Assembly (NCBI RefSeq): GCF_003334385.1
Contig: NZ_QOWN01000049.1
DNA length: 33,115 bases
DNA from: Escherichia coli
GTDB taxonomy: Bacteria > Pseudomonadota > Gammaproteobacteria > Enterobacterales > Enterobacteriaceae
Strand: one strand, 5' to 3'
The position numbers were made by a program, and so were the translations under genes. Position 1 is the first letter of the stretch. Every line of letters begins with the position of its first letter. Below are positions 27,551 to 27,887 of the stretch, piece after piece. Below the pieces are notes generated by a model, which had not been told where the DNA came from, searched no databases, and saw only the letters and a program-made list of their open reading frames with translations.

Positions 27551-27715
27551 ATGGGATTTATTCATCAGATAATGTTGTATTTCAGTACCGCCGTATCCCT
27601 TCTGTATCTGATCTCAGGGGGATATAAAGCCGTCCGCAATTTCTGGAACAAAAAGATAGATGAAGCAGCCGCCAGGAAATCAGCTGGCGGAGCGGTCAAC
27701 GGGGTATTGCCATAA
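27551..27715 (+). CDS. Small membrane protein (54 aa), hypothetical
   Basis: MGFIHQIMLYFSTAVSLLYLISGGYKAVRNFWNKKIDEAAARKSAGGAVNGVLP; strong RBS aaggag 6 nt upstream; below the track cutoff. Confidence 0.4.
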   Translation: MGFIHQIMLYFSTAVSLLYLISGGYKAVRNFWNKKIDEAAARKSAGGAVNGVLP

Positions 27716-27756
27716 CAACAGGCACAGCGCATCAGAACGGCACCACTGTCCACAGC

Positions 27757-27791
27757 AAAAGAAACAAAAAACCCTCCGGTATACGGAGGGT
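27757..27791 (-). terminator. Rho-independent terminator oriented for the minus strand
   Basis: 8-bp stem accctccg / cggagggt with loop gtata; on the minus strand the hairpin is followed by a U-tract (plus-strand A-tract aaaagaaacaaaaaa at 27757-27770). Confidence 0.55.
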
Positions 27792-27887
27792 GCAAGAGGG
27801 GAAAGGTGAGCAAGAAAGAACCCGAATTAAAAGCCATTTAATTTTGAGATTTTTAATTGCCACACGCAACACGTTCTACGGTGTTTT

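Follow-up and report, generated by a model that had tools for sequence, protein, structure and literature searches.

A leftward promoter-plus-terminator unit beside the esterase gene of a P2-like Escherichia coli prophage as a candidate small RNA gene

In a P2-like Escherichia coli prophage, the stretch from an esterase gene to tail gene R contains a hairpin with the make-up of an intrinsic terminator that points leftward, against a rightward late operon. Which transcript, if any, would end there? The question concerns positions 27551-27887 of the window, as the whole 33,115-nucleotide stretch of DNA that was analysed is called here. A first-pass annotation of this segment had offered three readings, namely a short antisense or intergenic RNA from the minus strand, a type I toxin-like peptide with an RNA regulator, and a bidirectional insulator. 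The first of these is favoured in its intergenic form, as a predicted RNA, by a homologous unit in related prophages and by convergent RNAs known from lambdoid prophages; the toxin and insulator readings are not supported. By analogy with these lambdoid RNAs, the backward promoter-plus-terminator unit probably makes an RNA of ~70 nt of the small RNA (sRNA) type.

The esterase cassette in a P2-like late operon

The window holds a P2-like E. coli prophage integrated beside dmsABC, and aligns with NZ_CP060083.1 at ~97-99% identity overall and at 100% across the 27551-27887 region. The late genes run rightward in the order capsid genes, gpX, holin, lysozyme, lysB/lysC, R, S, V, W, J, I and H. Between lysC (stop codon at 25512) and R (start at 27888) are two genes that are normally absent from P2-type backbones. 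The genes on either side of the segment are those named in the first-pass annotation, an esterase gene and a gpR-type tail gene, both identified by their Pfam domains (Table 1).

The first extra gene starts 3 nt beyond the lysC stop codon and carries the RefSeq label 'DUF6645 domain-containing protein'. Judged by domain architecture and by its similarity to ECs_1088 of the lambdoid Sakai prophage Sp4 (51% identity, full length), its product is a NanS-p-type prophage esterase. The second gene encodes a 54-aa protein with one N-terminal hydrophobic segment, IMLYFSTAVSLLYLISGGY, followed by a basic C-terminal tail. That a single-pass membrane protein gene with a strong ribosome-binding site follows the esterase had been noticed at the outset and is borne out, the AAGGAG lying 6 nt from the ATG. 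Residues 1-45 of the protein match positions 1-45 of the 59 in the PF07125 (DUF1378) model (E=6e-21), and the protein also matches phrog_494 (E=2.4e-23), a family of unknown function; there was no NCBIfam match above cut-off and no PADLOC or PDB match, and the literature on DUF1378 consists of passing mentions. A tblastn search with the 54-aa protein returned 309 phage records, almost all of them from lambdoid phages, Stx-converting ones included, and in the annotated phage examples inspected the DUF1378 gene stands after the esterase gene and before the holin gene. Given this pairing in Stx and lambdoid phages, the esterase and DUF1378 genes represent a known pair that has moved into a P2-like late operon.

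Cassette-free P2-like backbones of Citrobacter, Edwardsiella and Trabulsiella have a lysC-to-R gap of about 100 nt or less, and have no hairpin between lysC and R. The hairpin and the adjoining AT-rich stretch therefore belong to the insert, and it is close to certain that the feature is real and part of the esterase cassette. The insert is a mobile 'moron' cassette at the junction of lysB/lysC and tail gene R, consisting of the sialate O-acetylesterase-like gene, the DUF1378 gene and a leftward unit (27869-27765, minus strand), and the segment under study is its right-hand end. In phage morons (Juhala et al. 2000, as cited by Tree et al. 2014), extra DNA is likewise placed between late-operon genes, with promoter-like and terminator elements of its own and a differing local G+C. 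Unlike in those morons, the promoter-like and terminator elements of the window enclose an RNA unit whose direction is opposite to that of the operon, and the protein genes of the cassette have no dedicated terminator and rely on read-through.

The insertion site is occupied by something else in two cassette-free P2-like prophages, of Citrobacter youngae (L094) and Edwardsiella piscicida (L095). At 3399-3488 of both loci, between lysC and gpR, is a conserved open reading frame of ~30 codons for a hydrophobic peptide, VTLFDFIAEHPFWTLIYLLIIASVIERFAR.

Table 1. Features at the right-hand end of the esterase cassette, with window coordinates
Feature	Position	Strand	Evidence or remark
NanS-p-type carbohydrate esterase gene, 656 aa, main cassette cargo	25516-27486	+	Pfam DUF1737 + SASA + DUF6645
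Hairpin GCTTCCC(A)...GGGAAGC with neither T- nor A-tract	27491-27516		inverted repeat directly after esterase stop
Shine-Dalgarno sequence AAGGAG of the 54-aa ORF	27539-27544	+	sequence inspection; 6 nt before ATG
DUF1378-family small single-pass membrane protein gene, 54 aa	27551-27715	+	PF07125, E=6e-21
T-rich terminator tail TTTTTGTTTCTTTT	27757-27770	-	predicted RNA 3' end ~27764-27768
Intrinsic-terminator stem-loop ACCCUCCG-UAUAC-CGGAGGGU	27771-27791	-	top terminator-like site; fold
Predicted RNA body, ~44 nt, largely unpaired, C/U-rich GGCUUUUAAUUCGGGUUCUUUCUUGCUCACCUUUCCCCUCUUGC	27792-27835	-	fold; variable middle
Candidate sigma-70 promoter TTGCGT-17-CAAAAT	27841-27869	-	weight-matrix score 6.63
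P2 gpR-type tail completion gene	27888-28358	+	PF06891, phrog_65; P2-like backbone resumes

A terminator that points against the operon

The hairpin lies downstream of the peptide gene as first described, at a distance of 55 nt from the stop codon rather than the ~45 bp originally given. Its arms, ACCCTCCG and CGGAGGGT, form 8 perfect pairs, 6 of them G-C, around a 5-nt loop, and in the minus-strand transcript the 8-bp stem is followed directly by the tail UUUUUG UUUCUUUU. A GC-rich stem-loop with an immediate U-tract, the pattern by which intrinsic terminators are recognized, is thus present on the minus strand. On the plus strand, the stem is followed by GCAAGAGG, which has 0 T in 8 nt and no T-tract, and the terminator scan of the window lists no plus-strand terminator at the hairpin. 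The same scan ranks it first among the terminator-like sites of the whole 33-kb window. As minus-strand RNA the sequence folds at -14.4 kcal/mol (z=-4.7), and 0 of 200 shuffles did as well. The original observation that the terminator reads only on the minus strand therefore stands, and with the T-tract missing on the plus strand the proposal of a bidirectional insulator fails.

The transcript ending here might be thought to be the message of a minus-strand gene, and the 90-aa reading frame through the hairpin that had been called doubtful does exist (27565-27837), as an open frame with an ATG start. It is entirely antisense to the DUF1378 gene and the spacer that separates this gene from R, and translation would run through the terminator; it has no PHROG match and is unannotated in the RefSeq genomes examined. 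Because of its antisense position relative to DUF1378 and the missing PHROG match it is not treated as a gene, and the probability that it is one is negligible.

No Rfam family was found at the site, either at gathering thresholds on the window and related loci or in a scan of 27450-27950 with a permissive E-value. A dispersed, REP-like repeat was considered and rejected, the spacer being present once per prophage copy.

Convergent RNA genes behind lambdoid esterase genes

A GC-rich hairpin is found 3' of the esterase gene in every related locus collected. A minus-strand terminator lies 8-13 nt past the esterase stop codon in 29 of the 32 distinct downstream sequences, and a plus-strand terminator in none of the 32; the other three, consisting of two window-type sequences and the P2-like variant L011, were missed by the terminator scan, the long-loop version in L011 being seen by eye. 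As an A-tract precedes the stem on the plus strand, the hairpin is a terminator for the opposite strand. The first-pass annotation had described the terminator as an orphan, a label that does not fit a site at which the esterase gene is regularly accompanied by both the terminator and the peptide gene.

For some lambdoid prophages, the RNA that ends at such a terminator has been described. In EPEC E2348/69, PasA is an 85-nt RNA encoded on the minus strand (NC_011601.1, 743499 to 743415) with the gene order '> < >' (Pearl Mizrahi et al. 2021, PMC8550237, Table S6), and a reading of the loci places both PasA and PasC right after SASA esterase genes. Northern blots confirmed both RNAs, which are also abundant in RIL-seq data for Hfq, and the authors of that study equate EcOnc51/52 of EHEC with PasA/PasC (PMC8550237). 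EcOnc51/52 were detected by Hfq crosslinking in EHEC (Tree et al. 2014, PMC4104026), and EcOnc52 (Sakai 1182075 to 1181998, minus strand) overlaps the stop codon of ECs_1088. The lambdoid nanS-p-adjacent sRNAs rank among the most abundant partners of Hfq, and all descriptions of sRNAs in this place have until now come from lambdoid prophages of pathogenic E. coli; a literature search on P2-like prophages together with sRNA/Hfq or with nanS-p found no description of such a unit.

The resemblance of the window unit to PasA, PasC and EcOnc51/52 extends to several features. Each is convergent with a homologous NanS-p/SASA esterase gene and lies on the opposite strand, has a known or predicted length of ~70-85 nt, has a GC-rich intrinsic terminator and U-tail at its 3' end, and belongs to a late-operon moron cassette, often together with DUF1378. 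The differences are those of phage, place and sequence. PasA and PasC belong to lambdoid phages, in which the cassette sits between Q (or stx) and the holin gene, whereas that of the P2-like window sits between lysC and gpR. In 29 of the 32 relatives the terminator lies 8-13 nt from the esterase stop codon, whereas the window terminator, in the same orientation, lies after DUF1378 and ~280 nt away, and in place of the GCCAGC-type stem and seed of the lambdoid RNAs the window has a C/U-rich body. When a profile was built with nhmmer from 41 sequences of lambdoid, PasA and PasC type, it reached 27856-27766 of the window with E=1 and 3.0 bits, a score no better than that at an unrelated site, and the window unit is therefore regarded as an analogue of PasA/PasC and not as a demonstrable homologue. 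A consensus fold of the MAFFT alignment of the lambdoid, PasA and PasC sequences predicted only 3 pairs, the terminators being out of register.

As a kind, a convergent prophage-encoded sRNA gene that travels with a nanS-p esterase is known; the sequence, the host phage family and the position within the cassette are what is new here, and the finding opens no new mechanism.

The PP2 prophage of E. coli E2348/69 (L092) has two tandem convergent terminator units after the esterase gene, at 2367-2450 and 2516-2600. An EcOnc52-like copy is positioned directly at the stop codon, with PasA ~150 nt further on, an arrangement that probably accounts for the 'minor' 236-nt PasA species, whose end is at the first terminator.

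A candidate promoter and the predicted RNA

A terminator of this orientation raises the issue of where a leftward transcript would start. The promoter search that the first-pass annotation had proposed for the minus strand of 27790-27900 yields a candidate of moderate quality, with a -35 hexamer TTGCGT (27869-27864), a 17-nt spacer and a -10 hexamer CAAAAT (27846-27841), lying inside a patch of 33% G+C and predicting a start at the G of 27834/27835. The box agrees with 7 of the 12 consensus positions and falls under the threshold of the consensus scan. Its weight-matrix score stands at the 99.97th percentile of the window, a box this good being expected about once per 660 nt. The same weight matrix gives the box upstream of PasA a comparable score of 6.05 (against 6.63), and the mapped 5' end of PasA is 6 nt downstream of the equivalent -10 hexamer; in form, the PasA promoter TTGACA-18-CAGAAA is similar to that of the window.

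In the mechanism that we propose, this moderate sigma-70-like promoter in its AT-rich patch would drive leftward transcription from ~27834/27835, and transcription would stop at the intrinsic terminator at ~27765 to give an sRNA of the Hfq-dependent type of ~70 nt. Production of the RNA from the prophage would not depend on the late operon, and the RNA would act in trans, as its lambdoid counterparts do. Promoter activity, the RNA and its binding to Hfq, as well as regulation in trans, are each expected here on the example of PasA, PasC and EcOnc51/52.

In the predicted RNA of ~70 nt (27835 to 27765), a C/U-rich and largely unpaired 5' part is followed by the terminator with its U-tail. The four RNAs predicted from the window and from the related P2-like loci L008, L009 and L010 have the same layout of an unpaired C/U-rich stretch, a terminator and a tail of U6-7, a layout that is typical of Hfq-dependent sRNAs. 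Among 25 local translation-start regions, no duplexfold match with the RNA survives multiple testing.

A small family of units in P2-like prophages

The cassette is present at the equivalent site in four other P2-like prophage variants, the IMG/VR contigs L008, L009 (identical to L126) and L010, and L011. In all four, DUF1378 is separated from the esterase gene by the convergent terminator, whereas the window has its unit between DUF1378 and R. A profile built with nhmmer from the L008, L009 and L010 units, from promoter-like box to T-tract (112 positions), matches the window from 27869 to 27766 on the minus strand with E=3.7e-7 and 25 bits, covering model positions 6-104 of 112, and this is its sole significant match within the window. 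On the strength of that match, the window unit is classed as a full-length member of a small P2-like family. The similarity of stem and tail to L008-L010 was equalled by 0 of 1000 shuffles, and the body-and-promoter part taken alone is collinear with L010 at a level reached by 36 of 2000 shuffles (~p=0.02).

What the four units share is the CCCTCC/GGAGGG terminator, the promoter-like hexamers with their spacing, the cassette and the insertion site. Each P2-like cassette locus has a single copy of the CCCTCC...GGAGGG hairpin, and the lambdoid loci have none. The hexamers read TTGYGT-17-CAGAAT in L008-L010 and TTGCGT-17-CAAAAT in the window, with 17-nt spacing in all four, so that conserved ends (TTGYGT-17-CARAAT and the terminator) enclose 30-40 nt of variable sequence. 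In L008-L010 the hexamers also lie inside the DUF1378 5' leader, which makes their conservation ambiguous. The units of L008, L009 and L010 differ from that of the window in being placed before DUF1378 instead of after it, and the middle 30-40 nt is unconserved.

The window-type spacer is found in 14 of 5426 E. coli complete genomes, at an identity of at least 99% in all of them, and in no phage record; its sequence is invariant in all sampled E. coli genomes that carry the window type. A gpR scan of genome contigs gave three loci, all cassette-free, and two viral-contig scans, a metagenome DNA-pattern scan and protein-cluster look-ups gave no further variants. With about four distinct P2-like variants in the collections covered and an invariant window lineage, evidence from covariation is almost nil.

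The place held by the convergent terminator in the relatives is not empty in the window. Directly after the esterase stop codon is a second hairpin, whose stem is lengthened by one base pair by an A/C polymorphism at 27498 in some genomes, and which the L008/L009/L010 profile matches without significance (E=5.7). This hairpin may be a decayed copy of the terminator or a recombination scar. In addition, the octamer CATAACAA ends both the esterase ORF (27482-27489) and the DUF1378 ORF (27711-27718), and its two copies bracket a 229-bp segment with DUF1378; an 8-mer repeat within 700 nt is not significant alone. In the window the unit has swapped places with DUF1378, and the octamer and the tract-less hairpin have the appearance of traces of this rearrangement, of which the octamer may mark the joint.

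A displaced unit could have lost its function, leaving the hairpin as a terminator or a relic only, either behind a dead ancestral promoter or as a block on stray leftward transcription into the cassette and the lysis genes. The promoter is sub-consensus, the unit is no longer in its usual place beside the esterase stop codon, pairwise similarity reaches significance mainly in the stem and T-tract, and partial decay is known in the reverse direction, from the PasA-3 variant that has no terminator (Zhu, Shabalina & Storz 2026 preprint). We consider this plausible but less likely, since the profile match extends beyond the hairpin to the entire unit with its promoter-like box, the relocated unit retains both hexamers at a distance of 17 nt, and the sequence is invariant in all sampled carrier genomes. 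Moreover, there is neither a leftward gene nor a strong leftward promoter downstream that would need insulation, the genes from R to H being all rightward.

If the units are functional sRNA genes, a broader claim can be put forward tentatively, and with less than even confidence: that cassette-bearing P2-like prophages encode an undescribed sRNA family, made in the lysogen and regulating host or prophage mRNAs in trans. The proposed family would comprise four variants with a C/U-rich, single-stranded region resembling an anti-Shine-Dalgarno sequence and a CCCUCC/GGAGGG terminator, in a place equivalent to that of PasA/PasC. Should the esterase also travel with a convergent RNA unit into P2-like prophages, among them those of commensal human-gut strains, the two would resemble a functional module more than chance neighbours, and the riboregulators of the accessory genome would extend to a second phage family. 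For annotation, an 'orphan' reverse terminator after nanS-p-type genes can serve to mark unannotated sRNA genes.

The DUF1378-gpR spacers of L008 (~1725-1760), L009, L126 and L131 contain a different GC-rich hairpin, TGACCGGC...GCCGGTCA, with a T-tract on neither side.

The DUF1378 gene and the predicted RNA

The neighbourhood of a small hydrophobic peptide gene and an RNA gene on the opposite strand recalls type I toxin-antitoxin loci such as tisB/istR-1 and hok/sok, and DUF1378, with 54 aa and one hydrophobic helix, could on these grounds be the toxin and the minus-strand RNA its antitoxin. However, a type I antitoxin RNA would be expected to overlap the ORF or to pair with the translation-control region of the toxin mRNA, whereas the RNA predicted here has its 3' end ~50 nt beyond the DUF1378 stop codon, clear of the ORF, its ribosome-binding site and its leader, and 117 of 200 shuffled sequences are predicted to pair with the DUF1378 start region as well as it does.

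The two parts also occur independently of one another. RNA unit and peptide gene stand in one order in the window and in the other in L008-L011, and the PasA and PasC loci have no DUF1378 gene. In L010 (IMGVR_UViG_3300029738_000139; E. coli NZ_CP054353.1 and NZ_LR898874.1 carry this sequence type), stop codons truncate DUF1378 to 20 codons (3818-3880), leaving a pseudogene beside an intact convergent unit. The peptide has no match to toxin or defence families, DUF1378 and phrog_494 being its only matches. A type I toxin with an RNA regulator, as suggested in the first-pass annotation, is thus very improbable, and the 54-aa protein is an ordinary member of the DUF1378 family and not the partner of the predicted RNA.

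Late transcription across the hairpin

The presence of a hairpin within a late operon raises the further question of how R and the genes beyond it are expressed. A single exact copy of the P2-type late-promoter dyad TGT-N12-ACA is found in the late-gene region of the window, at 20452-20469, in the divergent promoter region between gpO, the capsid-scaffold gene, and the terminase gene. The motif scan of the late-gene region found no such dyad near or upstream of R, and a dedicated late promoter in the DUF1378-R spacer was rejected, the sole exact dyad being that at gpO/terminase. With no dyad upstream and a hairpin that is not a plus-strand terminator, R, S and V would be expressed by read-through from the gpO promoter. 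Late transcription from the gpO promoter region would pass the hairpin into these genes, as no U-tract follows it on the plus strand.

The R and S genes overlap by 4 nt (28355-28358), as do S and V (28987-28990). The overlap of S and V leaves no space for a separate promoter before V, unlike in P2, and the genes from R to H may form a single operon together with the head and lysis genes.

Since late transcription must cross the hairpin, the hairpin could instead act within the plus-strand late polycistronic mRNA, as a stabilizing or processing stem-loop that sets different levels for esterase and DUF1378 on the one hand and the tail genes on the other. Folded as plus-strand RNA, the stem gains a little in stability (-16.4 kcal/mol), and the plus-strand spacer folds better than shuffles (z=-2.4). 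A role of this kind is nonetheless improbable. It would leave unexplained the 5' A-tract that is conserved in 29 of the 32 distinct relatives and in all P2-like variants, and the opposite-strand RNAs that have been detected at the equivalent lambdoid site.

For the minus-strand sRNA that is preferred here, a local role in addition to one in trans can be envisaged. The predicted RNA is necessarily complementary to the late mRNA at 54-123 nt upstream of R, and through this complementarity upstream of gpR it might modulate the processing of the tail-gene message after induction.

Other features of the window

Two further RNA features score above the Rfam gathering threshold in the early/immunity region, where isrK (11686-11760) and the C4 antisense RNA (11796-11883, plus strand) are adjacent. 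The alignment of the window with NZ_CP060083.1 falls into two blocks that are offset by 750 nt and overlap at window positions 11663-12400; as indicated by these offset, overlapping blocks, the two sequences differ there by an insertion, deletion or duplication of ~740-750 bp. A full-length Rfam match to the sRNA STnc130 (4127-4261, plus strand; 124.8 bits) lies at the prophage edge, flanked by dmsA and the integrase gene of the prophage.
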